The notes below the pieces were generated by a model, which saw only the letters and a list, made by a program, of their open reading frames with translations, was not told where the DNA came from and did no database searches. From Vicinamibacterales bacterium (lineage in GTDB: Bacteria > Acidobacteriota > Vicinamibacteria > Vicinamibacterales > UBA8438), in NCBI GenBank assembly GCA_965249105.1, contig OZ252219.1, positions 2,455,108-2,519,107 of the forward strand: a stretch of DNA of 64,000 nucleotides, in the 5' to 3' direction. Position 1 is the stretch's first letter; each line of letters opens with the position of its first letter. Below are positions 1-58,560 of the stretch, piece after piece. Made by a program: the position numbers and the translations under genes.

Positions 1-458
1 ATCGCGGTGGAGTCTCGCGAGAGATGACCGACCAATCGGTCGTGATGCGTCTTCTGGATGACCGTCTCGTGCACGCGCAGAGGCAACTGCGTGGTCGCAA
101 ACTCGTCGAAGGCGTGTGAGAACAAGGATTCGCTCGGGACCTGGCGCCTAGTCTCCCAGCCGCAGATCCGGCGCAAGGGTCGATCGGTGGCCAGCCGATC
201 GAGCAGCCTGCGTGTCGTCGGCAGGTCGTAGACGGCCTTGGCGACAAACGCGCGGGCGACGGCCGCGCGATCCTTGCGAGGTCGGCCGGGCATGCGGACG
301 CGTCGGGGAATGTGGTCCTCGACCCGGATGACCTCCAAGGTCTGCACGAACTGCTGCTGTTTCTCCGTGAGTGGTCCCAGCTCTTCCTCCAGCCATGGAA
401 AGAGTGCGGTCTGAATGGACAGCCAGTGTGGTGCGAAGCACTCTCGGAGACGGCTCAT
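1..458 (-). CDS. DDE transposase, IS5/IS1182-like, N-terminal part (runs off the window start)
   Basis: Not in the supplied ORF track. Hand translation from ATG at 458 gives MSRLRECFAPHWLSIQTALFPWLEEELGPL...GRPRKDRAAVARAFVAKAVYDLPTTRRLLDRL...LRRICGW...PSESLFSHAF...HLSRDSTA. This matches the DUF772-type N-terminus, and the first DDE Asp lies in RDSTA. Confidence 0.8.
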   Translation of the reverse strand, partial: MSRLRECFAPHWLSIQTALFPWLEEELGPLTEKQQQFVQTLEVIRVEDHIPRRVRMPGRPRKDRAAVARAFVAKAVYDLPTTRRLLDRLATDRPLRRICGWETRRQVPSESLFSHAFDEFATTQLPLRVHETVIQKTHHDRLVGHLSRDSTA

Positions 459-481
459 TTTCTTCTTGACTCCTGGGGCCA

Positions 482-509
482 GGTCTAGCAGTATAACAAC
501 TGCTAGACC
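482..509. promoter_or_regulatory. 11-bp perfect inverted repeat between the divergent transposase and DUF6788 starts
   Basis: GGTCTAGCAGT-ATAACA-ACTGCTAGACC. It overlaps a TATAAC -10-like hexamer (492-497), with TTGACT at 466-471. Confidence 0.6.
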
Positions 510-521
510 GAATGGCACGAC

Positions 522-869
522 ATGCCCACCCGTGACCCAACAACCGACACGCAGCGCTACGACGCGCTCAAGCGCACCGTCGCTGAGGTGGGATTGCTTC
601 GACGTGGCAGCCTCGTGCAACGTTTCATGCCGTGCGGCAAGCCGAACTGCCGCTGCCAAGCGACGCCCCCGCAGCTACACGGGCCGTACTATCAGTGGAC
701 CCGCAAGGTCCGCGGCAAGACCGTCACCGTCCGTCTCACCGAGCAGCAAGCCGAGCGTGTCCGGGACTGGATCGAGAACGGCCGACAGCTAGACCGAATC
801 GTTGTGGAAATGGAGACGTTGTCGCTGCGGATGACTGAGCGCCTGCTTCGTCAGCTCACGCCTGTGTGA
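522..869 (+). CDS. DUF6788-like protein (transposon-associated, CxxxxCxC...HGPY motif)
   Basis: RRGSL...CGKPNCRC...HGPYYQWTRKVRGKTVT is the characteristic pattern; 115 aa. Confidence 0.8.
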   Translation: MPTRDPTTDTQRYDALKRTVAEVGLLRRGSLVQRFMPCGKPNCRCQATPPQLHGPYYQWTRKVRGKTVTVRLTEQQAERVRDWIENGRQLDRIVVEMETLSLRMTERLLRQLTPV

Positions 870-1007
870 TGTGGCCCGCACCGTGCGCAAGCCGCCAAAA
901 CACTTCTCTACGCGCAGGGTTTTGCAAGTGCCTCGGTTGGTCAAATTAGACTGCCCTCCAAGGTTGTGTGGTCACACGCTGGCCGATTGTATACCTGGGG
1001 TGCGGGG

Positions 1008-2961: not shown

Positions 2962-5655
2962 TCAGGGGATGGGCACACGTTCCAGCAGCTCTTGATCCCA
3001 GTTGAGGACGACGTTGATCTGGGGCGACAGGGATTCACTGCTGTCAGTTTGATCTGCCGGAAAAACCATGACAAACCGCTCGCCGTCGGGCGTCATGTCG
3101 TAGTCCCGGTAAAAGGGCACCGTGATGAAGCCTTCGATTGGCAGCGTCTGCTCGTTGCGGAACGCAAAGTCCGGTTCCGCGACGACATCGACTGACCGCA
3201 GTGTCCCTTGGGTGCGGGTGGCAATAGAAATAGGTCTATAGAACAATCGGTCGCCGTCGGGTGACCAGAGGGGCCAATAGGCCCCGTTCTGCGAAATCCG
3301 GTGTGGCCTCGATCCGGTCGGCGGGAAGGGCTCGACGTAGATGTCAATATCTAAGCCGGTCGTCCCCCTACCGTAGGCCAGCCACTGACCATTCGCCGAC
3401 AGTTCCGCGCCCCAGTAGACCGTGTCGGGCGTGTCATAGAGGCTTTGCGTCTCGAGCGTCGCACTCGACAGCGTCCAGATATCCCAATCACTCACGCGGT
3501 TTCTTTCTACGTTGAACAGAAGCGTCTGACCGTCCGGTGCCCACGACCCTGGCCAATGGGCCGTGCCTTCATCGGCGGTCGTCAGACGCTCCGCCGCGCC
3601 ACTGCCATCGGCTGGCATCGAGTAGAGGCTCATCGTTCCCTCCCGATCAGAGGAGAACGTGATGCGTTGGCTGTCGGGCGTCCAGATAGGACGTTGATTG
3701 TCACCTTCGAACGTGAGCTGTTGGATCTGTGCGTCGCCCGCAAGGTCGTAGAGCCAGAGGACACCGCCGTCATCTTCCGCTGTTTGCACGACCAGCTTCC
3801 TGCCGTCGGGTGAAAGACGCGGCGTCAGATACTGGGCGGGAGGCACAGCGAGGGTTTCGACCGCGCCGTCACGACCCACCAGGGCAAGAGTCCGGTCGCT
3901 GGTCACGGAACGGTCAACGACATACGCCAGCGATCCGTTGTCGGAGTGAGTGGACTGGGCGCGCCCTCCCGCGTCCATTTGGAGCTGGTGGATCCTTTCG
4001 ACGAGCGGCACGGGTCCGGGCGCGAGGGTTCGTTGCTCGATGTCGAACGGCTGAGCGAGCAACGTGCCCTCCCGCACGTACACCAAGTGGCCGGTCGGCA
4101 GATACTCCGCTTCGCTGCCTCCGCTTTCAATGAGCACCAGCCGGTCATCTGTGGCCAACGATTGGATCACGACGCGACCGGGAAACACGGTGAACAGGAC
4201 CCATTCGCCGCCGGGAAGGAGCTGTGGACTTCCGAGCCCGCCTTCGGACCCTTCCTGCGGGATGATGAGCTGCGGCGTGCCACCGCTTGCTGGCACCCGC
4301 CACACTCCGGAAGTGCTGCCAAAGAGGATCGCGTCATCCGGCCCCCAACTCACGCCGAAGGGTTCGACACTCTCGCCGAGTGTGGCCGGTAGACCGCCTG
4401 CCAGGGCGACCTTCTTAAGTTGGCCGGCAGCCCAGAAGCCAACCGTTCGACCGTCTGGCGAGAAGAAGGGTTCGACCGCGCCGTCCGTCCCCCGAATAGG
4501 AATCGCCTCCATCTGGTCCATGTCCCGGAGATAGAGCTGGTCGTTCGCGGCATAGACCAGGTGGGTGCCGTCGGGCGAGAGGGTGATGAGGGAATGCGGG
4601 CCACCGACAAAGTCTGACGGGAGCGCGATGGGGAAGCGCGTGACGGCACCCGGGGCAGCGGGAGCCGACCGCGTCACCGCCCACACGGCGAGGCCGCCGA
4701 TCACGATCAAGACCAGAGCCGAGATGACGGCCGGAACGGGTCGCTGCCAGACGTGAAGGTGAGGAGCAACGTTCGGTTCGGCTGCGCCGACCGTCGTCTC
4801 GAACGCGCCCTCCATGGCCAGCCGCACGTCGTGGATGTCACCCAGGCGCTGCTTCGGGTCCTTTTCAAGGCAACGGTGTAGGAATATCGACAGGGACGGC
4901 GACACGGCCGACGGCAAGTGACTCCAGTCTGGTTCTCGCTGGAGGACGCTCGACAGCGTCATCGACACGTCTTCGCCCTCGAAGACCTTCCGTCCGGTGA
5001 GCATTTCCAAAAGCACGACGCCGAACGCCCAGATATCCGCTCGCTTGTCGACGGTCTTCCCACGTGCTTGCTCCGGCGACATATACGCCGCCGTCCCCAA
5101 GATCGCGCCCATCTGGGTGGCGGCTGCTGTCAGCGTGGGCGATTGAGACGGATCATTATCCGGTCTCGTATCAAGAGCTTTGGCAAGTCCGAAGTCCAGG
5201 ACTTTGACCGTACCGTCGTCGCGCACCTTGATATTGGCCGGCTTCAGATCGCGATGGATCACACCGGCTTCGTGTGCGGCTTCCAAGGCCTCGGCGATCT
5301 GTTTCGCGACCGGCAGCGCCTCGTCGATGGGAATCGGCCCCTGCTTGATTCGATCAGCCAGCGTTGGCCCTTCGACCAGTTCAAGAACCAAGGCGCGGGT
5401 GCCCTCAGCTTCATCTTCTTCAATGCCGTAGATGGCCGCGATGCCAGAGTGGTTGAGGCTGGCAAGAACTTGCGCCTCTCGTTGGAACCGTGCCAGTCGA
5501 TCAGGATCAGTGGCAAACGCCTCGGGCAGGGTCTTCAGCGCCACCTGCCGGTTGAGCTTGGTGTCGGTGGCCTGATAGACCTGCCCCATGCCGCCCTCGC
5601 CGATAAGGGCGGTCACGTCGTAGTGAGCGAGGCGGGAGCCGACGTTCAGAGACAT
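2962..5655 (-). CDS. Hanks-type Ser/Thr protein kinase with a TM segment and C-terminal PD40/TolB-like beta-propeller
   Basis: IGEGGMGQVY, VALK, HRDLKPAN, DFG, YMSPE. Repeated xSPDG propeller motifs. Start at ATG 5655 (MSLNVGSRLAHY). Confidence 0.92.
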   Translation of the reverse strand: MSLNVGSRLAHYDVTALIGEGGMGQVYQATDTKLNRQVALKTLPEAFATDPDRLARFQREAQVLASLNHSGIAAIYGIEEDEAEGTRALVLELVEGPTLADRIKQGPIPIDEALPVAKQIAEALEAAHEAGVIHRDLKPANIKVRDDGTVKVLDFGLAKALDTRPDNDPSQSPTLTAAATQMGAILGTAAYMSPEQARGKTVDKRADIWAFGVVLLEMLTGRKVFEGEDVSMTLSSVLQREPDWSHLPSAVSPSLSIFLHRCLEKDPKQRLGDIHDVRLAMEGAFETTVGAAEPNVAPHLHVWQRPVPAVISALVLIVIGGLAVWAVTRSAPAAPGAVTRFPIALPSDFVGGPHSLITLSPDGTHLVYAANDQLYLRDMDQMEAIPIRGTDGAVEPFFSPDGRTVGFWAAGQLKKVALAGGLPATLGESVEPFGVSWGPDDAILFGSTSGVWRVPASGGTPQLIIPQEGSEGGLGSPQLLPGGEWVLFTVFPGRVVIQSLATDDRLVLIESGGSEAEYLPTGHLVYVREGTLLAQPFDIEQRTLAPGPVPLVERIHQLQMDAGGRAQSTHSDNGSLAYVVDRSVTSDRTLALVGRDGAVETLAVPPAQYLTPRLSPDGRKLVVQTAEDDGGVLWLYDLAGDAQIQQLTFEGDNQRPIWTPDSQRITFSSDREGTMSLYSMPADGSGAAERLTTADEGTAHWPGSWAPDGQTLLFNVERNRVSDWDIWTLSSATLETQSLYDTPDTVYWGAELSANGQWLAYGRGTTGLDIDIYVEPFPPTGSRPHRISQNGAYWPLWSPDGDRLFYRPISIATRTQGTLRSVDVVAEPDFAFRNEQTLPIEGFITVPFYRDYDMTPDGERFVMVFPADQTDSSESLSPQINVVLNWDQELLERVPIP

Positions 5656-5743
5656 AAGCCTCCCTATTCTGCCCTCAATTCGGTCGCCGGATCCACGGTG
5701 ACCACGGGGGAGACGACGCCCCAAGGGCTGTAGACTCGCCCCG

Positions 5744-7303
5744 ATGAGCGACACCACGCCGGGAACGTTGCAATCGATCTGGCGGGCAATGAGATCGTGG
5801 CGCACCGGGTCGGTGGTGCTGCTGTCGTTCTCGTCGGGACTGCCGCTCGGGCTGGTGTGGATCGCGATTCCGGACTGGATGCGCGACATCGGCGTCGACA
5901 TCCGGTGGGTTGGGCTGTTCACGCTCGCGCAGGCACCCTGGACGTTGAAGTTCATGTGGTCGCCGCTCATGGATCGCTACGTGCCGCCGCTGTGGGGACG
6001 CCGTCGAGGCTGGGCGGCCCTCACGCAGGTGCTGCTGTGCGTCCTGACGCTGTCCTTGTCCGGTGTCGGGAACGACCCCGAGGCGATCTGGGTCGTGTTC
6101 GCGCTGAGTCTGGCCATCGCACTGGCCGCGGCCTCGCAGGATATCGTCATCGACGCGTACGCCGTGGACGTCCTGCGACCCGAGGAGCATGGAGTGGCGG
6201 TGGGAGCACGGACCGCGCTCTACCGCGCGGCGATGACGCTGAGCGGAGGTGTCAGCATTTATCTCGCGACCCTTGTCTCGTGGCGTTGGGTGACGGTAGC
6301 TCTGGCCCTTTGTTACCTGCCGATGCTGCTGGTGAGCCGCAACGCGCCCGAGCCGGAGTCTGCCACGACCCCGCCCACGCGCCTGCGTGAGGCGGTGTGG
6401 CTTCCGTTCCTCGAAGCGCTGTCGCGACATCGCGCGCTCGAGATCCTGGCGTTCGTCGTGTTCTACAAGTTGGCCGACAACCTGTCGCAATCGTTGCTGC
6501 GGCCGTTCTTGAACGACATGGGGTACGACGCGTTCGACCGCGGTCTGGTGTTGGGGACGGCCGGAGTCCTCATCACGCTCATCGGCACGTTTCTGGGGGG
6601 TCTGGCATGTAGCTGGATCGGGCTCGGGCACTCTCTCTGGGTCTTCGGTGCACTACAGATCCTGTCGAACGTGGGCTACGTGCTGATCACGCACCTTCCG
6701 GGGAATCGCCCGCTGTACTATGGCGCGATATCGTTCGAGGTGATGACGACGGGCCTCGGGATGGGAGCGTTCGGGGTCCTCCTGCTGCGCATGACGCGGA
6801 AGCGATTTTCGGCAACGCAGTACGCGTTGTTCTCGAGCCTGTTCGGCCTGCCGCGCATCCTGGCGGGTCCCGTCACCGGTGTCGTAGTGGATGCCGTCGG
6901 CTGGCGGCCATTCTTTTACATGACCATGGCCGCCGGCATCCCGGGCTTGATCCTGTTGCAGCGATTCTCGCCGCTCGGCGTGCGCGAGCCAGAGCTGCTG
7001 AACGAGGAGCCCGCACGTGACGCCAAACGGTTGCCCACGCGGCAACTTGCTGTGCGGGGTGTAGTGGGCGGTGTCGTCGGCGGCACTGTGTTCGTACTGT
7101 TGGCCGCGTGCCTCGGGGCGCTGAAGGCGATGCGAACGGGCGATATCAACGCGTTCGCGTTGGGACCGATGCTCGCCGGTGTCCTGGGGCCGCACGACGC
7201 CGACGGCGTCGTGAGACTACTGATCGTGCTGGCGCTCGCCGTCGTGAGCGGGCTGGCCACGGCGGCCCTGAGTGCGGCACGGCACGGGGGCCAGAGAGGC
7301 TAG
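5744..7303 (+). CDS. ampG: AmpG-family MFS muropeptide transporter
   Basis: SFSSGLPL, LKFMWSPLMD, ASQDIVIDAY, SATQYALFSSL; many TM helices. Confidence 0.85.
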   Translation: MSDTTPGTLQSIWRAMRSWRTGSVVLLSFSSGLPLGLVWIAIPDWMRDIGVDIRWVGLFTLAQAPWTLKFMWSPLMDRYVPPLWGRRRGWAALTQVLLCVLTLSLSGVGNDPEAIWVVFALSLAIALAAASQDIVIDAYAVDVLRPEEHGVAVGARTALYRAAMTLSGGVSIYLATLVSWRWVTVALALCYLPMLLVSRNAPEPESATTPPTRLREAVWLPFLEALSRHRALEILAFVVFYKLADNLSQSLLRPFLNDMGYDAFDRGLVLGTAGVLITLIGTFLGGLACSWIGLGHSLWVFGALQILSNVGYVLITHLPGNRPLYYGAISFEVMTTGLGMGAFGVLLLRMTRKRFSATQYALFSSLFGLPRILAGPVTGVVVDAVGWRPFFYMTMAAGIPGLILLQRFSPLGVREPELLNEEPARDAKRLPTRQLAVRGVVGGVVGGTVFVLLAACLGALKAMRTGDINAFALGPMLAGVLGPHDADGVVRLLIVLALAVVSGLATAALSAARHGGQRG

Positions 7304-7977
7304 TGCCACTTCCTCGTCACGTGGCCATCATCGGCGCCGCGGGCGGTCTCGGCCAGGGCATTCTCAGCGTGTGCCGAGCGGAGAACATAGCGTTTACCGC
7401 CATTGTCCGCTCGCGGCCGGAGCGCATCACAGACGTGCCAGATGGCTCTCGCGTCGTCGTTGTCACCTCTCTCGCCGACCGCGCTGCCCTCACTGAGGCG
7501 TTTTCAGGGACAGACGCTGTGCTCACGGCCATGGGGGTGACGCGGTCGAGCCGCGACCGATCAGCCCTGCTCTCTGCCAACTTGGCCAGCGTCGAGGCTT
7601 CAATGACGGCTGCCGGCGTCGACCGCATAGTGGTCATCAACACGTTTCTCACCTCACCGCCAGGCAAGGCTGCGAGCCGGGCGGTGCGCTTCCTTTCGCG
7701 GGTGCCCGGGAACATTGGCCGCATGGAGAAGGAGCTGCAAGCCGTGGTTGATGCCCTTGCCAGCGGGGCGTTCCCCTCGCTTCGCTGGACACTCGTCCGG
7801 GCATCGGTCAACTATTTCGGCAAGGACGAGCGGCCGGTGGCGTCGGCAGCTCATGACAGCGCTCTCAACTCCTGGTGGGCCGTTTCATATCAAGCCATGG
7901 GTCGGTGGATGCTGGAGGAAGCTGCGGCCAATGAGTTTGTCCTCGCAGCACCCGTCGTGACGCGGCGCCGCAAGTGA
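7303..7977 (+). CDS. NAD(P)H-binding oxidoreductase (atypical SDR / flavin reductase-like)
   Basis: VAIIGAAGGLG Rossmann motif. GTG start overlaps the ampG stop by 1 nt. Confidence 0.75.
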   Translation: MPLPRHVAIIGAAGGLGQGILSVCRAENIAFTAIVRSRPERITDVPDGSRVVVVTSLADRAALTEAFSGTDAVLTAMGVTRSSRDRSALLSANLASVEASMTAAGVDRIVVINTFLTSPPGKAASRAVRFLSRVPGNIGRMEKELQAVVDALASGAFPSLRWTLVRASVNYFGKDERPVASAAHDSALNSWWAVSYQAMGRWMLEEAAANEFVLAAPVVTRRRK

Positions 7978-7986
7978 TTCAAGGAC

Positions 7987-8151
7987 CTAGTGCAGTGGTT
8001 CAGAAATACCTCGGCATTCGGCCACCGATGCATCCCTTCTGCCTGCGTTGCTCCTCTGTCACAGATTCCCGATTTGCTCCTTCGTCGCGCCTGGCCAGAA
8101 GGGTGCTTCGGCGCCCTCGGTGCACGAGGTATTTCTGAACCACTGCACTAG
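7987..8151. mobile_element. MITE copy 1 (IS630-type ends, CTAG/TA target)
   Basis: Perfect 27-bp terminal inverted repeats CTAGTGCAGTGGTTCAGAAATACCTCG at 7987-8013 and 8125-8151. A second copy lies in opposite orientation at 21055-21219. Confidence 0.9.
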
Positions 8152-8174
8152 CACCGGGCTCTACATCCACAGCA

Positions 8175-8504
8175 TCAAGAGCTCGATCGGTCCTGAGCTG
8201 GCTCGTCGAGTACCCATCGCCTGAGCCAGGCAGGAAGCGCGGCACTCGGCCTATAGAGGGCAACCCCCCGGCGCCGTATCATTTTCACGGTGACCACAAC
8301 GGAACTTGCCGCCACGGGTACCACGATCATCATGGTCCCGACAAACCTCCAGAACGCCGACTCGGTGGCGACAAGCGCAACCAAGGCCACGAAGAAGGTG
8401 CCCGTCACGATGAGCCGTTTGGGAGAGACTTGCACTGTCCATCCAGCCGTGAGCGACCGCGTCATCCGTCGAAGACGAGCCCCGAATGTTCTTGACTGAG
8501 TCAC
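8175..8504 (-). CDS. Small hypothetical membrane protein
   Basis: 109-aa ORF with two hydrophobic segments; no recognisable family. Confidence 0.45.
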   Translation of the reverse strand: MTQSRTFGARLRRMTRSLTAGWTVQVSPKRLIVTGTFFVALVALVATESAFWRFVGTMMIVVPVAASSVVVTVKMIRRRGVALYRPSAALPAWLRRWVLDEPAQDRSSS

Positions 8505-17575: not shown

Positions 17576-17824
17576 CGAGCCCAGGAGTGTTCTAGACGTG
17601 CGCTCGCCCTTCGTCAGCATCGCGCCACGAGAAGATGTTGCCGGTGACCCTCAGGCCCTCGCGTCGCCGGAGTATCGCGAGGGCTACACCGAGCACAAGG
17701 CCGACGAGGGCGCAGCAGACCGCGAGCCACCAGATCTGGGGACTCACCAGTGTGAGAAGCCCAGCCAGGGCGACCACACTCAGTCCACCGACTCCCGGAA
17801 CCGGTCCACCACTAAGGTTTATGC

Positions 17825-19273
17825 GGTAGATTCAAACGGTCGTCGCAACACCTCAACGGTGAGGAGTTGCGATGGGAACACCGAAACGTCGTCGGTCACC
17901 CCGTGCGGGACGTCTTCCGATGCGGTCGCCGGGTCGTCCCACGGCGGGACGCCGTGAGCATCGGCGTCGGTTCTGGGAGGCGATCGCCTGCGGGTTGTCC
18001 AGCGACGAGGCGGCGCTGGGGGCCGGCGTGTCCCAGCCGGTCGGAACGAGATGGTTCCGCGAAAGTGGAGGCATGCCGCCGATCAGCCTGGCCCCTCTGT
18101 CGGGGCGCTACCTGTCGTTTGCCGAGCGAGAAGAGATCGCCATCTTGCACGCCCAGCACTGCGGGGTTCGTGATATCGCTCGGCGAATCAGCCGGTCCCC
18201 GTCGACCATCTCTCGGGAGCTCCGTCGCAATGCGGCAACCCGCAGTGGCGGACTCGAGTATCGCGCGACGACCGCGCAGTGGCACGCCGACCTGAAGGCG
18301 AAAAGACCGCAGGTGGCGAAGCTCGCTGCACACGACGAACTGCGCCGGTACGTGCAAGACCGACTCGCCGGCAGGATTACGGCCGCCGACGGGACGAGGG
18401 TGCCTGGTCCCCATGTGCACTGGAACGGTCGCCGCCCCGGGCGCCGTCAAGACCGACGCTGGGCGGCGTCATGGAGTCCTGAGCAAATTGCCAACAGACT
18501 CAAGGTCGACTTCCCCGATGAGGAGTCGATGCGGATCTCCCACGAGGCCATCTACCAGGCGCTCTACGTGCAGGGACGAGGGGCACTGCGACGCGACCTG
18601 GTGGCGTGCTTGCGGACCGGCCGGGCGCTGCGCGTGCCAAGAGCACGGACACGAGGACGCGGCAAGGCGTTCGTCACTGCCGAAATCATGATCAGCAAGC
18701 GCCCCGCCGAAGCAGACGATCGGGCGGTCCCAGGACACTGGGAAGGTGACCTGATTGTCGGACTGGGGAGCTCTGCGATTGGGACCCTCGTGGAACGCAC
18801 CAGCCGATTCACGAGGCTGCTGCATCTGCCTCGCATGGATGACTATGGGCAGCCTCGGATCAAGAACGGTCCCGCCCTGGCGGGGCATGGTGCCGAGGCC
18901 GTCCGAGACGCCATCGCGTCGTCGATCATCACGCTGCCCACGCAGCTTCGCCGTTCACTGACATGGGACCAAGGCGCCGAGATGGCTCAACACGTTCAAC
19001 TCCGAATCGACACCGGTCTGCCAATCTACTTCTGCGACCCACACAGCCCCTGGCAACGCGGCACGAACGAGAACACCAACGGCCTGCTGCGGCAGTACTT
19101 TCCCAAAGGCACCGACCTGTCCAGACACTCTCGTGATGATCTTGACGCCGTTGCTGCTGCTCTCAACAGTCGCCCCCGCAAGACCCTCGGCTGGAAGACA
19201 CCCGCGGAGGCACTTGGCGATCACCTATGCTCAATCACACAACGCGGTGTTGCGACGACACCTTGAACCCAAG
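17825..19273 (+). mobile_element. IS30-family insertion sequence, copy 1 (1449 bp)
   Basis: Imperfect 27-bp IRs (GGTAGATTCAAACGGTCGTCGCAACAC / GTGTTGCGACGACACCTTGAACCCAAG). TGC target duplication at 17822-17824 and 19274-19276. Confidence 0.95.
17872..19266 (+). CDS. IS30-family transposase
   Basis: LSFAEREEI HTH, ISRELRRN, WSPEQI, HWEGDLI, TWDQGAEM, ENTNGLLRQYFPK. Confidence 0.95.
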   Translation: MGTPKRRRSPRAGRLPMRSPGRPTAGRREHRRRFWEAIACGLSSDEAALGAGVSQPVGTRWFRESGGMPPISLAPLSGRYLSFAEREEIAILHAQHCGVRDIARRISRSPSTISRELRRNAATRSGGLEYRATTAQWHADLKAKRPQVAKLAAHDELRRYVQDRLAGRITAADGTRVPGPHVHWNGRRPGRRQDRRWAASWSPEQIANRLKVDFPDEESMRISHEAIYQALYVQGRGALRRDLVACLRTGRALRVPRARTRGRGKAFVTAEIMISKRPAEADDRAVPGHWEGDLIVGLGSSAIGTLVERTSRFTRLLHLPRMDDYGQPRIKNGPALAGHGAEAVRDAIASSIITLPTQLRRSLTWDQGAEMAQHVQLRIDTGLPIYFCDPHSPWQRGTNENTNGLLRQYFPKGTDLSRHSRDDLDAVAAALNSRPRKTLGWKTPAEALGDHLCSITQRGVATTP

Positions 19274-19531: not shown

Positions 19532-19864
19532 TCATGAGCGTACTCCCTTCAGCTGAGGAATGTCGGTCCAGAGCGCAACGAGCGCCCTCTGCGTGCCCTT
19601 CACGGCGCGAAGGCCGGCGGGCGTGACCTCGAAGAACCGTTTCGCCCGGCCTCCTCGTTCCGGCGTCGGGTCGCCAGTCGACGAAGCCACGAGCCCGTTT
19701 CGCTCCAGGCGGTCCAGCGCCGCGTACACGGCTCCCAACAGGACCCGGCGCCCGCCCGTGCGCTCAATCTCCCGCCCGATGAGTACCCCGTACGCCTGAT
19801 CACCCACCCTCAGTGCGGCGAGCAGAATCATGAGCTCGAAATCGGTGAGAAGACTGCGCACCAT
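19532..19864 (-). CDS. PadR-family transcriptional regulator
   Basis: ELMILLA...AYGVLI...GAVYAALDRLERNGLV...GGRAKRFFEVT. Confidence 0.92.
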   Translation of the reverse strand: MVRSLLTDFELMILLAALRVGDQAYGVLIGREIERTGGRRVLLGAVYAALDRLERNGLVASSTGDPTPERGGRAKRFFEVTPAGLRAVKGTQRALVALWTDIPQLKGVRS

Positions 19865-19903: not shown

Positions 19904-21058
19904 CTAGTGTCCTGAGTACGAAATAGCTGTACACGAAACGCTGTACTTTGCGCTGCCCGTTTGGTACGGTAGCGCATGTTCATTCAACGGTACTGTGTCT
20001 ACGCATCGCCGACCGAGCAAGCCCAGTTGGCCCAGGTGGCTGAGCGCGGGACGACGACGCAGAAGGTGGCGCGGCGGGCGCGGATCGTGTTGATGCTGGC
20101 GCAACAGGCCTCGCCGATGGTCGTGGCCCGGACGCTGCACGTCAGTCGGATGACGGTGCGGTTGTGGGCGCGCCGGTTTGTGGCCGAGGGGGTTCCGGGC
20201 GTGCTCCGCGACGCCACGCGTCCGGGCCGACGCCCACGCTTGACCCTGACGAAGGTGCAGGCGATCGTTGACGCGACCCTGACGACGCGCCCGCCGGCCG
20301 GCACCCATTGGAGTAGTCGCGCCCTGGCGGAAGCGCAGGGCGTGAGCGACGGCACGATTCGTAAGATCTGGCGACAACACGGCCTCCAGCCCCACCGCGT
20401 GGGGCAGTTCAAGCTGTCGACCGACCCCCACTTCGTCGAGAAGCTGCGCGACGTGGTGGGGCTGTATCTGAATCCACCCGCCAAAGCGGTGGTGTTTTGC
20501 GTCGATGAGAAGAGTGGGATCCAAGCGCTGGACCGGACGCGCCCGGTGTTGCCACTGCGGCCCGGCGTCCCCGAACGCCAGACCCATGACTACGTCCGCT
20601 ACGGGACGACCACGCTGTATGCCGCACTGCGCGTGCTCGATGGCGTCGTGATCGGCGAATGCCGCCGCCGTCACCGGAGTCAGGAATTCGTGCGGTTCCT
20701 CCGGCGGCTGGAACGCGCGACGCCTCCCGATCAGCCGCTGCACCTGATTTTGGACAACCTGAGTGCCCACAAGAGTCCCCAGGTGCGGCGCTGGCTCACG
20801 CGCCATCCCCGCGTGCACTTTCACTTCGTGCCCACCAGCAGCTCCTGGCTGAATCTGGTGGAACGCTGGTTTGCGGAGATCACTCGCACGCGGCTCCGCC
20901 GGGGCACCTTCACCAGCGTGCCGGCGCTCGAGCGAGCGATCCACGACTACTTGACTCATTACAATCAGCATGCGAAGCCGTTTATCTGGACCAAGGCTGC
21001 CGACACCATCCTCGCGAAGGTCGACCGGTGTAAAGAAGCGTTAAACGCACCACACTAG
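19904..21058 (+). mobile_element. IS630-family insertion sequence
   Basis: Bounded by CTAG at both ends. Imperfect IRs (CTAGTGTCCTGAGTACGAAATAG / revcomp CTAGTGTGGTGCGTTTAACG). Contains one transposase ORF. Confidence 0.9.
19976..21058 (+). CDS. IS630-family transposase
   Basis: N-terminal HTH, HWSSRALA, VDEKSGIQAL, ILDNLSAHK, SSWLNLVERWF (DDE). Confidence 0.95.
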   Translation: MFIQRYCVYASPTEQAQLAQVAERGTTTQKVARRARIVLMLAQQASPMVVARTLHVSRMTVRLWARRFVAEGVPGVLRDATRPGRRPRLTLTKVQAIVDATLTTRPPAGTHWSSRALAEAQGVSDGTIRKIWRQHGLQPHRVGQFKLSTDPHFVEKLRDVVGLYLNPPAKAVVFCVDEKSGIQALDRTRPVLPLRPGVPERQTHDYVRYGTTTLYAALRVLDGVVIGECRRRHRSQEFVRFLRRLERATPPDQPLHLILDNLSAHKSPQVRRWLTRHPRVHFHFVPTSSSWLNLVERWFAEITRTRLRRGTFTSVPALERAIHDYLTHYNQHAKPFIWTKAADTILAKVDRCKEALNAPH

Positions 21059-21219
21059 TGCAGTGGTTCAGAAATACCTCGTGCACCGAGGGCGCCGAAG
21101 CACCCGTCTGGCCAGGCGCGACGAAGGAGCAAATCGGGAATCTGTGACTGAGGAGCAACGCAGGCAGAAGGGATGCATCGGTGGCCGAATGCCGAGGTAT
21201 TTCTGAACCACTGCACTAG
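21055..21219. mobile_element. MITE copy 2 (inverted relative to copy 1)
   Basis: Same 27-bp TIRs and same 165-bp length. Only two substitutions seen versus 7987-8151. Shares its CTAG with the IS630 right end. Confidence 0.9.
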
Positions 21220-22517
21220 AGACTGGTCACACTGACGCCACCCAACTTGGCCCCGCCCAGCGCAAGGAGAATGGGGACAAGCCGCAATCCCAACGCCCCG
21301 GAGCCTCCAATGCCGCCGGATGCCAGCAGGGCGAGCCCCACGACCATCAGGCCGCTACCGACGACCATCCTCCACGGCGCGGGGCTCGGCGCCGTGCGCT
21401 TCGACGGATGCTCGAAGCGGCTGAAGATTCCGACGAACGGGAGAAGCGCGACCGCAAAGACAGCCACCCAGGCAAGGCGCGTCCACCACCAGTCACCGGT
21501 GCCGGGCATGACCTCCAAACCGATCCCGCCCAGCCATATGGAAACGCCGAACGACAACATCATCACGGTGCTGTGCCAGAGGAAGATAGTCATGATCATC
21601 CCGTTGACCAACACCGTCGCCGTCCACAGATGCGAGCCGGCCAGCAGTGACGCCAGCCGGCGCTCGATCAGCATGATGCCTCCGAACTGAAAGGCCGCGA
21701 GGGCCACCAGCGGAAGGTGAGGCGGCTCCGTGTTGCTGACCACCTCGCCCGGCACTCCGACCAGGCTGTGGGGCCACGGGCCCACCTCGGTGAGCGCCAC
21801 CAGCGAGCCGAGACCGACGATGCACCAGAGGGACGAGCGAAGGCGGGAAGCGAATCGACCTTCAAGCCAGGCATAGCCCAGCTGGTGAACCCCAACCCAG
21901 ACGAAGAGGTAGTTGACCCACCCCGCCTCCGTCCAGTCGAGCCCGAAGTAAGCACCGTCGACGAGACCGGCCAAGAGAAACGGGACCACGATAGACCCCA
22001 TCCCCATCGACTTCCAAGCGGCGCGGGTAAATGGGACCAGCAAGATCACAAGCGCATAGACCGCCAGGAACCAGGTCGGCACGAGGGCGATCTGGGAACC
22101 GACTCGGATCATCCCGGCCGACACGCCGACGCCATGGGCCACGCCAGCGGTGACGATCCAGAACAGGACCAGCACCACCACCGGCCCGAGAAGGCGGGTC
22201 AGTCGGCTGCTCAGCCAATCCCGGTACGACGTGCCGTCCCGACAGGCCGCATCCCAGGAGATCCCGTTGGAATAACCGCCGACAAAGAAGAATATGGGCA
22301 TCACCTGCATCACCCAGGTCAGCCATTAAGCCCAAGGCGAAACATCAAGCAGGTGGTTGATGTGGGCGCCGTCCGCATCTACCCAGGGCGCGGCCATCAA
22401 CCAATGGCCCGTCACCACCACGAGGATCGAAACCGCCCTCAGGAAATCGACGCAGCGATTTCGCTTCGCCGGTGTCTTCTCCGCCAGTCTGGCGGCGGCG
22501 CTCCAGGGGGACTTCAT
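21216..22517 (-). pseudogene. Acyltransferase family 3 membrane protein with an in-frame TAA
   Basis: RNRCVDFLRAVSILVVVTGHW ... SPWA*WLTWVMQVMPIFFFVGG. The stop at 22326-22328 is in frame with 21216-22313. Confidence 0.82.
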
Positions 22518-22526
22518 CTCACCTCA

Positions 22527-25500
22527 TCATGCCATCCTGATCCACCGAACCAACGTCGCCACGTTCGGCGGCTTTCCGTGCATGAGGAGTCCAACGCGAA
22601 ACACCTTCGCGGCGAACCAGAGTGCTGCGTAGACCGCCGCGCTGGAGATGACGATCGTCAGCCATACCTGCCACAGCGGTGGTGGCGTGGCGGAGCTCAT
22701 GCGCAACAGCATTGCGAACGTGTTCACCGGCGGAACGAAACTCATCGCGGTACTGAAGGCGGAATCTGGACTCTGGTTGATCGGTCCCATCAAGAGGAAC
22801 GGAATCACCAACACAAGCATGATCGGGGTCATGAGCGACTGGGCTTCGTTCATGTCATTGACTGCAGCGCCCACGGCAGCCACGAGAGCACCATACACGA
22901 AGTAGGTCAGCACGAAGAAGATGAACAAGTACGCCACGAGGCCGACGTCGAGAAGGTCAAACATCGCGAACGACAACAGCGCCACGATCCCTAGTGCCAC
23001 GTACAAGCCGAGGACGGTGAGCCCGACGCCGAGCTGCCCAAGGATCTTGCCGGTCATCAGCTCCAGCGGCGACACGGCCGACAGCAATACTTCAACAATC
23101 CGGCTGGACTTCTCCTCAATGGTCGTCGTCAGGAGGGCTTGGCCGCTAATGACCACGGCCACAAAGAGCAGCATGCCGAACGCCATGGGAATGAGCCGAT
23201 TCAAGACCCTCGAGGTCTCACGCTCCGTGTCGACCGTGATCGCGATGGTGGGCGATGGAGACACGTCAAGCAACGCCGTGAGGACGTTCCGGTCGAGGTC
23301 GTGCGCCTCAACCCGTGCCGCGACGATCGCGTCCTCCAGACTGTCATGAATCTCATCCTCGATGCGCTCATCGAGTTGAGGTCCCACGAACAAGTCGTAG
23401 GCGCCGAAGTCGACACTCCCATCCGACAATTCGACGGCGTTCTCATGCACGACGGCCAGAGCCAATCGGCGAGTCGTGGCAGCCTCGTCCGCGAGGCGCT
23501 GCTTCTCTTGTTCGACATCGCCCGAGGTCGTGAGCTCAACCACGTCCAGGTGCGCCACCTCACCCAGCGCGTCCGTCATCGCCGACGCGACATCGGTCCC
23601 CTCAGCCACATTCCGCACGTCATCCGGGAGCTCGTCAAGGACTCGCTCCGTGGTGGCCGCGCGGTCGGGTAGACCAGGGTCGTTGCTGACCCCAGCCCCC
23701 CACAGATCCGGACATGCGGGTTCTTCCGCATCCGGCTCCTCGGCAGATGGTGTCGCTACACGCCGGTGGCGAAGTGAGCGGCCGTCATCCGCGGAAGAGG
23801 ATATCGCGCGAGAAGGCGGAGGAACCGCGTCCACGGCATTGTCCTCTGCTGCGACCGGCGGTTGAGCCACTTTTGCCAGATGTGCACGACGTGGAAGCCG
23901 AACGTCGTCAGGCTCGAGGCGTTCCCCCGAATCCCAAAGTAGGCACAATGCCCGCGCAGCTTCCACACCAACATCCGATGCTGCTTCGCGATCGATTCAT
24001 GGCGGTGCGTACAACACCAGCGATTGACGGCCGTCAGGCTCCGCCGGAGGCGGTCCTTGGCCGTCTTGCGCTTGAGCACCCAGCTGCCGTTCCGGGCGAT
24101 GCACCAGTAGTGCGTGAACCCCAGGAAGTCGAACGTGCCGGGTGGCGGGAATCTGTCACCGTTCTGCCCCGGGCGCCAACCCAAGCGCGGTCGGCGGAAC
24201 CGAACCAGACGGCTCTTCTCCGGATGCATCGTGAGCCCGACCCGCCCGAGGCGTTTCGGGAGCACCTCCAGCACCCGGTGGGCGTCAGATTCCTGCTCGA
24301 CGACGATGACCACGTCGTCCGCGTAGCGGACGAGGACGCTGCGGCCACGGAGGCATGGTTGCACCTCCGTCGTGAACCATACGTCGAGGACATAGTGGAG
24401 GTAGATGTTCGCCAACAGCGGCGACACGACCCCACCTTGCGGGGTGCCGAGGACGGAACGACGCACCTGCCCGTCCTCCAACACACCGGCTTTCAGCCAT
24501 TTGTCAATCGCGCGGCGCAGCACGCCGTCGCGTACCCGCTGGTCCAGAAAGCCGCGGAGATGTCCGTGGTCCAGGGCATCGAAGAAGCCCTGGATGTCCA
24601 GGTCAATCACCCAGCCTCCGCCCATCAGCATGGTCTGCTCCCAGAGGTGCTGCAGGGCCTGGTGAGCCGAGCGCCCAGGGCGGAAGCCGAAGCTACAGTC
24701 CCGGAAGTCCTGCTCGTAGACACTTTCCAGCACCATCACCACGGCTCGCTGCAGCACCTTGTCCTCGAACGTCGGTATCCCGATTGGTCGAGTCTTCCGG
24801 CCATCCCCTTTCGGGATGTGGACGCGGCGCACGGGAGGCGCGACATACTGGCCGGACTTGAAGCGGTCGAGCAGCGACTGGAGGTTGGCCTCCAGATTCG
24901 CTGCGTAGTCGTCCGCCGTTTGTCCGTCCAGTCCGACCGCCCCGTCTTTCCGCGTTACTACATAAGCCGCGTGAAGCATGTCCCTGTCGATGTGGTGAGC
25001 CAGGCTCGTGACCACCATATCCGATGCCTGTCTGGCCAGTTCGGCTATCCGTTGTCGTTTCAGTGAGATGGGGTCCAACCTCGGCGTGTTGGCCATCGTT
25101 CCCTCCAACGGTTCCATCTGTCGGCGCCCCCTTCCCTCCACGGGGTCTCGTGGACCCGATTCCCCCGCTTCGCCGGTACTATGAGACGCTCCGATTCCTC
25201 GCCGCCCCTCCCCCGCGCTTCGTTGCCTTCGCGCGGCGGTACCATCCGAGCACCTGCGGGTTCGCTCCGTCGGACGCCAGGTGCCACGTCCACGGCCTCG
25301 GGCTTGGTGAGCCGGTGCCCGCCCCCCGGCAACCTTTAAGATGGAGACGATGAGGCCTCCCGGGTTCCCGGGAAACCCACCCGCACGCATGCCACGCGCT
25401 CCGACCCCGGCGAGGTCGCCGCCTCCACGGCCTCTGAGATGCGGCGAGATAGCCTTCCGTCCAACGCACGACGTCGGCCCTCACAAACAATGCATTTCGG

Positions 25501-25930
25501 GGCTCAATCACGCGGCCTACGGGCTCCCTGTGAACGCTTCGCGCCCTGGGTCACCCCAGGCCCACGCATCACTCGGTTCCGGCTGGCGGCCGACCTTGGC
25601 CGGATGGGATTGGATACCCACAGGGTTTCGAACAAGGTTTCAAAGATCACATCACGGCATCTTGTCCTCCTTGACCGGGCTTTCCCGGCACACGCGCTGG
25701 AGCATGGCGTCGGGATCGAGGTAGGCGCGAACGCCCTCGGTCACAACGCCGGTAGGGTCGATCAGCGCGATCTCGCCCTCGACCCGAGGTGGGTCGTTCG
25801 TCATGAGCCGTGGAGCCACGAGGCTCATCACCAGAATCATCGCGGGCATGAGGAGCACACCCAGGAGGAACCCCTTCGTTGCCACGGTGCCGAGGTATTC
25901 CCGACCTGCCACCAGGATGACCTTTCTCAC
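22527..25930 (-). CDS. ABC-2 type transporter permease split by a group II intron (exons 25930-25694 and 23663-22527; 457 aa spliced)
   Basis: Exon 1 is 79 codons (MRKVILVAGREY...DPDAMLQR) and joins in frame to RAATTERVLDE...IEEKSSRIVEVLLSAVSPLELMTGKILG. Confidence 0.88.
23664..25693 (-). mobile_element. Group II intron (IIB-like), 2030 bp
   Basis: 5' end GTGTG at 25693. Domain V GAGCCGGATGCGG...CCGCATGTCCGGATC (23738-23705). Domain VI ends CTACCCGAC with the bulged-A spacing and AY terminus at 23664. Confidence 0.93.
23756..25096 (-). CDS. Group II intron reverse transcriptase/maturase without an endonuclease domain
   Basis: GLDG, RRVHIPK, RPIGIPTFEDKVLQ, SFGFRPGRS, GTPQGGVVSPLLANIYL, RYADD, FDFLGF. 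GGAGG RBS before ATG 25096. Ends after domain X with no HNH. Confidence 0.95.
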   Translation of the reverse strand: MANTPRLDPISLKRQRIAELARQASDMVVTSLAHHIDRDMLHAAYVVTRKDGAVGLDGQTADDYAANLEANLQSLLDRFKSGQYVAPPVRRVHIPKGDGRKTRPIGIPTFEDKVLQRAVVMVLESVYEQDFRDCSFGFRPGRSAHQALQHLWEQTMLMGGGWVIDLDIQGFFDALDHGHLRGFLDQRVRDGVLRRAIDKWLKAGVLEDGQVRRSVLGTPQGGVVSPLLANIYLHYVLDVWFTTEVQPCLRGRSVLVRYADDVVIVVEQESDAHRVLEVLPKRLGRVGLTMHPEKSRLVRFRRPRLGWRPGQNGDRFPPPGTFDFLGFTHYWCIARNGSWVLKRKTAKDRLRRSLTAVNRWCCTHRHESIAKQHRMLVWKLRGHCAYFGIRGNASSLTTFGFHVVHIWQKWLNRRSQQRTMPWTRFLRLLARYPLPRMTAAHFATGV

Positions 25931-26913
25931 CCACTCACCTCCGCGTCCGTGTCGCCGCGCAAGTCGGCCCGCAGCATCGGGTCAGAACTCGCTGCGCTGC
26001 CGTGATCGGAAACGATTTGGATGAAGATGTCCTCGAGTTTCGGTCGAGCGAGCTCCAGACGAGCCGGCGTGATGGCCCCGGCGAGCGTCCGCATGGCCTG
26101 CCCCGTGTCGGTCCCTGCCTCTAGCGTGATCTCACATGTGCCATCGACCTGAATCAAACGCCGAATGCCATTGAGACGTTCCAGGACCGAGAGATCCGCA
26201 TGCGGGTCGAGGGGATCCAGCAACACAGTTCGGGGATCGTAGCGGCGGCGTATGCTCGCGAGGCTGTCGTCGAGAACCTTTCGTCCACGGTGAACCATGA
26301 CCACGTGCTCGCACAGTTGCTCCGCATGAGGCATCACGTGCGTCGACAGGAGAATCGTTGCCCCACGCCGATGCTCTGCATCGATCATCTCCCGAACCAG
26401 ACGGGTGCTGATAGGGTCGAGACCACTGAACGGCTCGTCGAGAATAAGGAGATCCGGGGCATGCAGAATTGCCGCGAGGAACTGTATCTTCTGCAACATG
26501 CCCTTCGACAGCTCCTCGCAGCGCTTGTGTTCGGCGTCGGCGAGTCCCACCCGCTCGAGTCCTTGACGGATACGAGCCGGTAGGGTCTGACGGTCGGCGT
26601 CCTTGAGTCGGGCCACGTAGGTCAAGAAGGCGCGCACGGTCATCTTCCGGTACACACCCCGCTCTTCAGGCAAATAACCGATGCGGCGCTTGGCCTCGAG
26701 CGCTGACGCATGCCCCAACACGTTGAGCTGGCCAGAGTCTGGAAAGAGGAAGAGGATGGACATGATCAGGCGCAACGTCGTCGTCTTGCCGGCGCCGTTC
26801 GGCCCGATGAATCCGTAAAGGCCGCCCTGCGGGACAGCAAGATCCAGATCAAGAACCGCCGCGACCTCGCCGAAGGTCTTGGTGACGCCCTTGATGGAAA
26901 TCGCGGAGTTCAT
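25927..26913 (-). CDS. ABC transporter ATP-binding protein
   Basis: GPNGAGKTT Walker A, LSKGM signature, LILDEP Walker B, H-loop. Confidence 0.95.
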   Translation of the reverse strand: MNSAISIKGVTKTFGEVAAVLDLDLAVPQGGLYGFIGPNGAGKTTTLRLIMSILFLFPDSGQLNVLGHASALEAKRRIGYLPEERGVYRKMTVRAFLTYVARLKDADRQTLPARIRQGLERVGLADAEHKRCEELSKGMLQKIQFLAAILHAPDLLILDEPFSGLDPISTRLVREMIDAEHRRGATILLSTHVMPHAEQLCEHVVMVHRGRKVLDDSLASIRRRYDPRTVLLDPLDPHADLSVLERLNGIRRLIQVDGTCEITLEAGTDTGQAMRTLAGAITPARLELARPKLEDIFIQIVSDHGSAASSDPMLRADLRGDTDAEVSG

Positions 26914-54169: not shown

Positions 54170-55102
54170 CTACAACGCAGGGACCCGCACGAGCAGGTAG
54201 GTGATGTGCCCCCCTTCCGGCACGATGTAGCCGTGCGGGGTCCTCGCTGGAATGTGGAGGACATCCCCAGCGGCAACAGGGTGCCGCATCCCACCAGCAA
54301 TACCGGTGCCCCGGCTACCTGTCCGGTCGATCATCTCGCCCCCTACCAGCAGGGTCGCCGCGCCACTCCTCACGAGCACCACATCAATGACGCCATCGTG
54401 AATCTCGGGGACTCCGTCTGCGTCCCGATGGATGAACCGGAAGCGATGGGCACCAGAGGGGTTGCCGAAGTCAGCCAACGTTTCGCGGGCCGAACGGTCC
54501 GGGCCGACCCTGAGGGAGAGAGCGGCATCGCGTTGCGCAAGCTCCGAAGCACTCCACATGGCGAATCCTGGCGGGTCGTACTCCAAGACCGGCGCGTCGG
54601 GGCGCGTGACCGGCGGGTCCACGAACGCCGGGACCCGGACCAGGAGATAGGTAATGTGCCCGCCTTTGGGTACCAAGTAGCGATGAGGGGTATCGGCGGG
54701 AACGTGGATGACGTCGCCCGGGCCAACCGGATACCGAACGCCACCCGCAATGCCGGTGCCCTGGTACTCGCCGTTGCTCCCCGTTCGGTTCACCATGTCG
54801 CCGCCGACCAGCAGGGTGCCTTCACCGCTCCTGATGAACACGACGTCCTCGATGTGCTCATGCTGCTCGGGGATTCCGTCGCCGTCCCGATGAATGAAGC
54901 GGAAGCGATGAGCTCCGGTTGGGTTGCCGTAGTCGGCGAGAGTTTCTCGGGCAGAGTGGTCAGGACCAACTCTCTCGGACAGGGCCGTATCGCGCTGCTC
55001 CAGCTCCGATGCGCTCCATCTGACGAATCGCGGTGGGTCAGTCTGCAGGAGGGGTAGAAGCGCGACTGCAGTTACCAGGAGACGAACTGTCACCGTCATC
55101 AT
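54170..55102 (-). CDS. Exported protein with two tandem cupin domains
   Basis: Two highly similar halves, each with HRFRFIHRD..G.PE.H and GDV.H.PA.TPH. Confidence 0.82.
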   Translation of the reverse strand: MMTVTVRLLVTAVALLPLLQTDPPRFVRWSASELEQRDTALSERVGPDHSARETLADYGNPTGAHRFRFIHRDGDGIPEQHEHIEDVVFIRSGEGTLLVGGDMVNRTGSNGEYQGTGIAGGVRYPVGPGDVIHVPADTPHRYLVPKGGHITYLLVRVPAFVDPPVTRPDAPVLEYDPPGFAMWSASELAQRDAALSLRVGPDRSARETLADFGNPSGAHRFRFIHRDADGVPEIHDGVIDVVLVRSGAATLLVGGEMIDRTGSRGTGIAGGMRHPVAAGDVLHIPARTPHGYIVPEGGHITYLLVRVPAL

Positions 55103-58409: not shown

Positions 58410-58560
58410 CATGGAGACGAGCCAACTAGTGGCCGCGGTCCTGATGATGGTGTCGCCAGCGTTGTTCGCCCTGAGCTATCAGCTCTACCACCCAATCCGG
58501 ACCCTTGATGTAGAGGACTCCAAGACACGAGGACTCCACATTGCGTTGTGGAGCATCACC

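Follow-up and report, generated by a model that had tools for sequence, protein, structure and literature searches.

Within the 64-kb stretch of DNA analysed here (the window), one short sequence with mirrored ends occurs twice, in opposite orientations. The locus raises three questions: what kind of element this is, which transposase moves it, and whether its folded interior has a role of its own.

Anatomy of the two copies

Copy 1 lies at positions 7987-8151 on the plus strand; copy 2, inverted relative to copy 1, occupies 21055-21219 on the minus strand. Copy 1 and the reverse complement of copy 2 have the same base at 163 of 165 positions (98.8%; blastn E = 7.7e-80), the mismatches falling at element positions 71 (T/A) and 114 (A/C), and the sequences flanking the two copies are unrelated. 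Perfect 27-nt TIRs (CTAGTGCAGTGGTTCAGAAATACCTCG) are present in both copies, and a 20-mer derived from them occurs four times in the 64-kb window against 0.01 expected. The 165-bp repeat described in the initial annotation, with its 27-nt perfect TIRs and two differing positions, is thus borne out. Beyond the TIRs, the inverted repeat extends imperfectly to ~55 nt (84%). CTAG stands at both ends as that annotation reported, but as the first and last four nucleotides of the 165 bp rather than outside them. If the borders are parsed as C-TA-[element]-TA-G, 159 bp with 24-nt perfect TIRs remain as the element proper, spanning 7990-8148 in copy 1 (TIRs at 7990-8013 and 8125-8148) and 21058-21216 in copy 2. 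The TIR sequence for which a parent insertion sequence was sought is GTGCAGTGGTTCAGAAATACCTCG.

The sequence contains no credible ORF, as initially noted: the longest reach 54 aa and lack codon bias, with a third-position GC of 0.56 against 0.74-0.84 in the adjacent genes. At 165 bp, below ~300 bp and without coding capacity, the element has the dimensions of a MITE. Both window copies are assigned to subfamily A of the family described below.

A complete IS630 insertion sequence adjoins copy 2

Copy 2 lies head-to-tail with a complete IS630-family insertion sequence (19904-21058, plus strand; 1155 bp when the CTAG at either end is counted; 19907-21055 for the element proper), and the CTAG at 21055-21058 is common to the right end of the IS630 and to the MITE. 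The left end of the IS630 reads CTAGTGTCCTGAGTACGAAATAGC and the right end, as reverse complement, CTAGTGTGGTGCGTTTAACGCTTC. Its intact transposase gene (19976-21058, plus strand; 360 aa) carries the Pfam domains DDE_3, HTH_23, HTH_32 and HTH_29 and matches the NCBIfam IS630 equivalog NF033545 over the full profile with 274.6 bits (cut-off 100). The TAG stop of this gene is composed of the TA of the target duplication and the following G. The combination of DDE_3 with N-terminal HTH domains, the length, the TIRs and the TA flanks is that of the IS630 family. The limits 19904-21058 follow from a 95.8%-identical copy that occurs in another genomic context (locus L004 of the comparison set), and further copies are found in L006 and L007. 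The initial annotation stated that copy 2 abuts a stop codon, which is true but under-described, since the transposase stop lies on one side and the stop of an acyltransferase gene on the other; the IS630 identity of the ORF next to copy 2 had been overlooked.

No IS630 relatives were found in IMG/VR, and exact protein look-ups with the IS630 and IS30 transposases of the window returned no record. In L005, a 99.5%-identical IS630 copy (618-1728) has lost both termini, retaining only positions 16-1126, and is called as a 487-aa protein within a histidine-biosynthesis gene cluster.

The CTAG target

All seven MITE sites known to us from the window and other assemblies read C-TA-[G...C]-TA-G, as does every complete IS630 copy examined (at least 12 sites), drawn from the window, from L004 and L006, and from a variant with 82% identity (ten copies). 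The target preference of the MITE is that of the co-resident IS630. This context is restrictive: only 54 of the 1004 TA dinucleotides in the window (5.4%) lie within CTAG, which is four-fold depleted (214 expected from base composition, 84 from a Markov model), and the CTAG sites often overlap TAG stops, for example at 7300, 9305 and 9992.

The MITE would insert at the TA of CTAG and duplicate TA. IS630-family elements duplicate TA (PMC2170065), and a preference of IS630 itself for TA within CTAG is reported in work that appears in the reference list of the same paper. The borders of the MITE fit a TA, a 3-bp TAG or a 4-bp CTAG duplication alike, and sequence cannot separate them; we infer a 2-bp TA duplication rather than one of 3-4 bp. 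Insertion re-creates CTAG on either side, since the first base of an element is G and the last is C, and this re-creation would account for the head-to-tail arrangement of IS630 and MITE across 19904-21219. The rarity of CTAG in this 64%-GC genome and its frequent overlap with TAG stops would direct insertions to gene ends and spare the gene. Rarity, stop overlap and re-creation together would explain both the elements found on stop codons and the head-to-tail pile-ups.

Genes at the two insertion sites

Copy 1 was initially placed between convergent genes. On the left this holds: an NAD(P)H-binding (NmrA-like) gene (7306-7977, plus strand) ends with a stop at 7975-7977, and copy 1 starts 9 nt past that stop. 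The domain starts near 7306 and the longest ORF begins at 7108. The right-hand partner, an ORF at 8175-8504 on the minus strand, has no family match and borderline codon bias.

At copy 2, an acyltransferase-3 ORF (21216-22313, minus strand) has its TAG stop (21216-21218) within the border CTAG of the MITE at 21216-21219. The ORF lacks ~140 N-terminal residues of its homologues, while its C-terminus lies near the natural end. On the other side of the IS630 lies a PadR-family regulator gene (19532-19864, minus strand). A near-consensus sigma-70-like site, TTGACA-16-CATAAT with 11 of 12 matches, is present on the minus strand at 19902-19875, and a single base separates its -35 box from the CTAG at the left end of the IS630. 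As the acyltransferase stop borders the MITE and the PadR promoter-like site borders the left end of the IS630, the two elements (1312 bp) probably occupy what was formerly a single CTAG between that stop and the PadR promoter.

Window 21216-22512 was also compared with its nearest relative (9887-10782 of L016/L017). The 5' part is homologous, with 88% nucleotide identity, and is fused there to a 3-keto-disaccharide-hydrolase domain. This different fusion in the nearest related genome points to a rearrangement breakpoint near window 21615.

Further copies and excision of the element

Gene callers may read into such elements, and six-frame MITE peptides were for this reason searched against a protein database. 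Four database proteins (P0121-P0124), called in ENA assemblies, match and are chimeras with MITE-encoded peptides. They lead to a subfamily A copy that lacks the first 17 nt, is 94.6% identical and occupies the same locus in two samples (L010/L011), and to subfamily B, which is 165 bp long, 81% identical to the window copies and bounded by the TIR CTAGTGCAGTGATCGCGAAATACCTC. Subfamily B is present at three loci: a kinase/PD40 gene (L012/L013), a PepSY_TM gene (L014) and an intergenic region (L018). These three copies are CTAG-flanked and 100% identical to one another. Ten more loci, obtained via an IS630 homologue, yield subfamily C (166 bp, L021 5880-6045, CTAG-flanked) and a decayed relic in L023, the hairpin of which is not significant (z = -0.7). 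Subfamilies B and C have equivalent TIRs. In total there are seven MITE loci, two in the window and five independent ones in other assemblies, so that the family is not confined to the two copies first seen. The identity of the three subfamily B copies at different loci, together with the 98.8% identity of the window copies, upholds the initial suggestion of recent activity.

The copy number appears low in the material scanned: neither the window nor ~500 kb of related loci yields any additional copy with nhmmer. Exact scans with the TIR 20-mer of GTDB representative genomes, JGI metagenomes and IMG/VR give only chance single hits that do not extend, and a second metagenome scan, with a subterminal pattern common to subfamilies A and B, gives one chance hit. 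Blastn against PLSDB plasmids and INPHARED phages gives no match to the MITE. The Rfam search suggested by the initial annotation likewise returns nothing at the gathering score, nor at E <= 1 over 7850-8300.

The subfamily B insertions reveal what the element does to a gene. A Ser/Thr kinase with PD40 repeats (L012/L013 10001-12528) and the PepSY_TM gene (L014 5467-6767) are each split and annotated as ORF pairs. In-silico excision that removes 161 bp and leaves one CTAG restores an 856-codon kinase/PD40 ORF, and in L014 a 383-codon PepSY_TM ORF with an unbroken, full-length match to Pfam PF03929. A database protein that reads through an inserted copy goes out of frame, and the net insertion is therefore not a multiple of 3; 161 bp fits 159 + 2. 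The additional copies and the restoration of two genes agree with the initial description of a non-autonomous, TIR-bounded mobile element.

Natural empty CTAG sites for the two window copies, which the same description had envisaged, were not recovered by a concatenated flank-protein search. The closest relative of the flank proteins (P0125, L016/L017) aligns only to window 21615-22512 and shows no synteny across either of the two insertions. A kinase in L006 was considered as an empty site for L012 and rejected, being 77% identical in the kinase domain and not an orthologue.

The distribution of copies also bears on whether the MITE is an independent element at all. It could instead derive from the neighbouring IS630, with which copy 2 is in contact, as its fused ends or as a solo-TIR remnant, or be a palindromic artefact of long-read assembly, since the names of the source contigs point to long-read metagenome assembly. 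Copy 1 is isolated, at a distance of 12 kb, the interior is unlike IS630 and the TIR differs from both IS630 ends. Identical copies are moreover found at different loci in the independent samples ERZ25067264 and ERZ25069191, and such an origin is highly improbable. The MITE family is genuine, was unannotated until now and represents a well-known kind of element.

Candidate transposases

The MITE is likely an IS630-type, non-autonomous element targeted to CTAG, as judged from its borders, its ends and its neighbour. We infer that it is cut out and pasted by an IS630-family transposase acting in trans. The neighbouring IS630 clade would be the best candidate for the mobilising enzyme, although the true parent with identical TIRs was not found. 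No autonomous element with a subfamily A, B or C TIR occurs in the ~509 kb examined, and this includes the same-TIR autonomous IS630 that the initial annotation proposed looking for. Its assignment to the IS630 type is nevertheless the best-supported one, through the CTAG habit, a partial likeness of the TIRs and the adjacency to IS630.

The likeness was assessed over the 24 nt after CTAG. Subfamily A matches the IS630 left end at 13-14 of 24 positions and subfamily B at 14-15, compared with 12-14 for the IS630 left end against its own right end and with ~700 unrelated CTAG sites, which average 6 matches and reach at most 12-13. What the MITE and the IS630 left end have in common is CTAGTG at the terminus and, at positions 17-22, a GAAATA box. 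The resemblance is modest and does not reach significance in a shuffle test with gaps; it is suggestive and not conclusive. The MITE interior has no similarity to IS630, and the element is thus not a simple deletion derivative of it.

Other parents were considered among the IS630 transposases and the resident insertion sequences. None of the 120 best homologues fits an IS630 transposase with a C-terminus derived from the right TIR of the MITE (...GISEPLH and stop). An IS5-like element was rejected, as its TIR (GAGGCACTTGCAAAAC) is unlike the MITE ends and its duplication, ~TGA, is not CTAG-specific. A DDE_Tnp_1_4 element was rejected as well, with a TIR (CCCGGATTATTCAGGAAGG) unlike the MITE ends and a duplication of TAG (L021) or TAA (L026). 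In L021, subfamily C adjoins the right end of a 1710-bp insertion sequence of the DDE_Tnp_1_4 type (4173-5882), and the terminal C of that element together with its TAG duplication makes up the CTAG bordering subfamily C.

This arrangement lends some substance to mobilisation by a transposase outside the IS630 family, such as an IS5/IS1031/IS701-like DDE enzyme duplicating 3-4 bp (TAG or CTAG). The MITE borders suit a 3- or 4-bp duplication equally, the net insertion being 161 bp in every model. Insertion sequences of these kinds are abundant in the genomes concerned, and subfamily C, with its unrelated TIR, abuts an element that duplicates TAG. That element is not CTAG-specific, however, as its L026 copy is flanked by TAA, and the TIRs of neither the DDE_Tnp_1_4 nor the IS5-like element look like the ends of the MITE. 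Only in the IS630 clade do the strict CTAG habit and the CTAGTG...GAAATA termini recur, so that a non-IS630 enzyme is quite unlikely. As the TIRs of the other resident insertion sequences are unrelated and their targets lack CTAG specificity, the MITE is with fair confidence assigned to the IS630 type.

The hairpin and its conserved core

The minimum-energy fold of the window MITE is one whole-length hairpin, with energies of -95.3 and -98.6 kcal/mol on the two strands and z = -10.3 and -11.9. Both local hairpins named in the initial annotation are present and are absorbed into this single structure. Subfamilies A, B and C adopt the same whole-length hairpin at -92 to -99 kcal/mol (z -8 to -12), with subfamily C at -96.8 kcal/mol. 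Across the A/B/C alignment, compensatory changes preserve pairing at 20 of the 66 positions paired in the hairpin, and many of these pairs lie beyond the TIRs. Subfamily C has only 30-33% identity to subfamilies A/B in the TIRs but 62-79% in the interior. In the usual contrast drawn for MITEs, this pattern of diverged TIRs and a conserved interior is reversed. The contrast between TIRs and interior, taken with the paired changes, suggests that either the hairpin core has been under selection or its arms have been homogenised with each other and the TIRs replaced.

The family may conceivably be modular, with a ~110-nt hairpin core as selected cargo that has been fitted with unrelated TIR sets (A/B versus C), although on these alignments we regard this as doubtful. 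If it is so, the core could act on the 3' ends of neighbouring genes or on its own transposition, riding any CTAG-targeting transposase. A slimmer chance still attaches to the proposal that the core is the conserved unit, kept for a function in the host or the element, and that the TIRs are interchangeable mobility adaptors. As a structured RNA it would stabilise or end transcripts; it might equally serve as a DNA hairpin or a protein-binding site. The conserved interior beside differing TIRs, the compensatory pairs outside the TIRs, the strong folding of all three subfamilies and the RNA-level action of known MITEs (PMC10969869) are what such a function would predict. The comparison covers three lineages only, however, and in a palindrome, homogenisation between the arms could look like selection. 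Some copies lie within genes and interrupt them, so that their placement gives no hint of a benefit, Rfam contains no matching family, and terminator-like motifs occur at chance rate.

The initial annotation further suggested that the RNA structure affects flanking transcripts. Transcripts of Correia elements are cleaved by RNase III (PMC10969869, PMC2229807) and ERIC elements act at 3' ends (PMC10969869), so that an RNA effect is a reasonable idea here too. The MITE contains no canonical intrinsic terminator, only weak motifs, and an effect on 3'-end formation of flanking transcripts can only be conjectured.

Other features of the window

The window carries several further mobile elements. 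An IS30-family element of 1450 bp is present in two direct copies (17824-19273 and 58560-60009) that are 99.7% identical; its 464-aa transposase contains the Pfam domains HTH_38 and rve and scores 246 bits against NCBIfam NF033563. A group II intron (23664-25613, minus strand) is recognised by Rfam RF02005 at 25395-25613 and RF00029 at 23664-23740, with a reverse transcriptase/maturase ORF at 23756-25390 (TIGR04416, 338 bits), and is flanked by genes for an ABC ATPase (25927-26913) and an ABC-2 permease (22527-~23650). The start of the window (1-934) lies within an IS5-like element (type DUF772/DDE_Tnp_1) that contains a DUF6788 ORF at 522-869. Copies in L006 have 99.7% identity to it and are inserted there into IS630 copies. 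An ORF at 54170-55102 (minus strand) contains a tandem internal duplication (54174-54577 and 54624-55039; 72% over ~410 bp). The gene content, including TonB, LolA-like/MMPL and many Ser/Thr kinases with PD40 repeats, is that of a Gram-negative, high-GC, soil-type bacterium.

In conclusion, the evidence as it stands is ordinary mobile-element biology. It adds an unannotated MITE family with at least three subfamilies from uncultured high-GC soil bacteria, with a likely IS630 partner. For genome annotation, the family flags spurious or chimeric calls, namely the four database proteins that read into MITEs and the two split genes. Should the hairpin core turn out to have a function, it would usefully exemplify the spread of a structured module through transposition.

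Comparison with known systems

Among described elements, Nezha of cyanobacteria is an IS630-related MITE that is said to be mobilised by an IS630-type element. It belongs to a different phylum, and the likeness is one of description and not at sequence level.

IS630 of Shigella sonnei and ISY100 duplicate TA, as the MITE would, and a CTAG preference is indicated for IS630 itself in the part of the literature gathered by PMC2170065. According to that paper and its references, as far as they bear on the point, the IS630/ISY100 transposase binds the TIRs through N-terminal helix-turn-helix motifs. Unlike these elements, the MITE encodes nothing. The IS630 of the window matches the NCBIfam IS630 equivalog, and it has ~65-67% DNA identity to annotated plasmid IS630 elements over the catalytic half.

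The Correia/NEMIS elements of Neisseria resemble the MITE in size (Correia ~107-155 bp), in TIRs of ~24-26 nt and in the terminal TA (PMC2229807, PMC10969869). Correia transcripts form long stem-loops that are cleaved by RNase III (PMC2229807, PMC10969869), and a long stem-loop is predicted for the MITE. The two have no sequence similarity, and the host of the MITE is an uncultured high-GC soil bacterium.

For RUP of pneumococcus, likewise a MITE, mobilisation by IS630-Spn1 has been proposed, and its insertions favour insertion sequences or their vicinity (PMC2229807). RUP has no sequence similarity to the present MITE and differs in length (107 bp against 159-165 bp), in its TIRs (~9 nt against 24 nt) and in copy number (~100 against few so far). 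The present MITE, unlike RUP, has a strict CTAG context, a whole-length hairpin and a weaker TIR similarity to its candidate IS630. Both are small and non-coding and carry TIRs that resemble, only partly so in the present MITE, those of an IS630-family element; RUP inserts at TA, as the MITE would. Both also tend to lie in or next to insertion sequences, and in both the highly similar copies suggest recent movement (PMC2229807).
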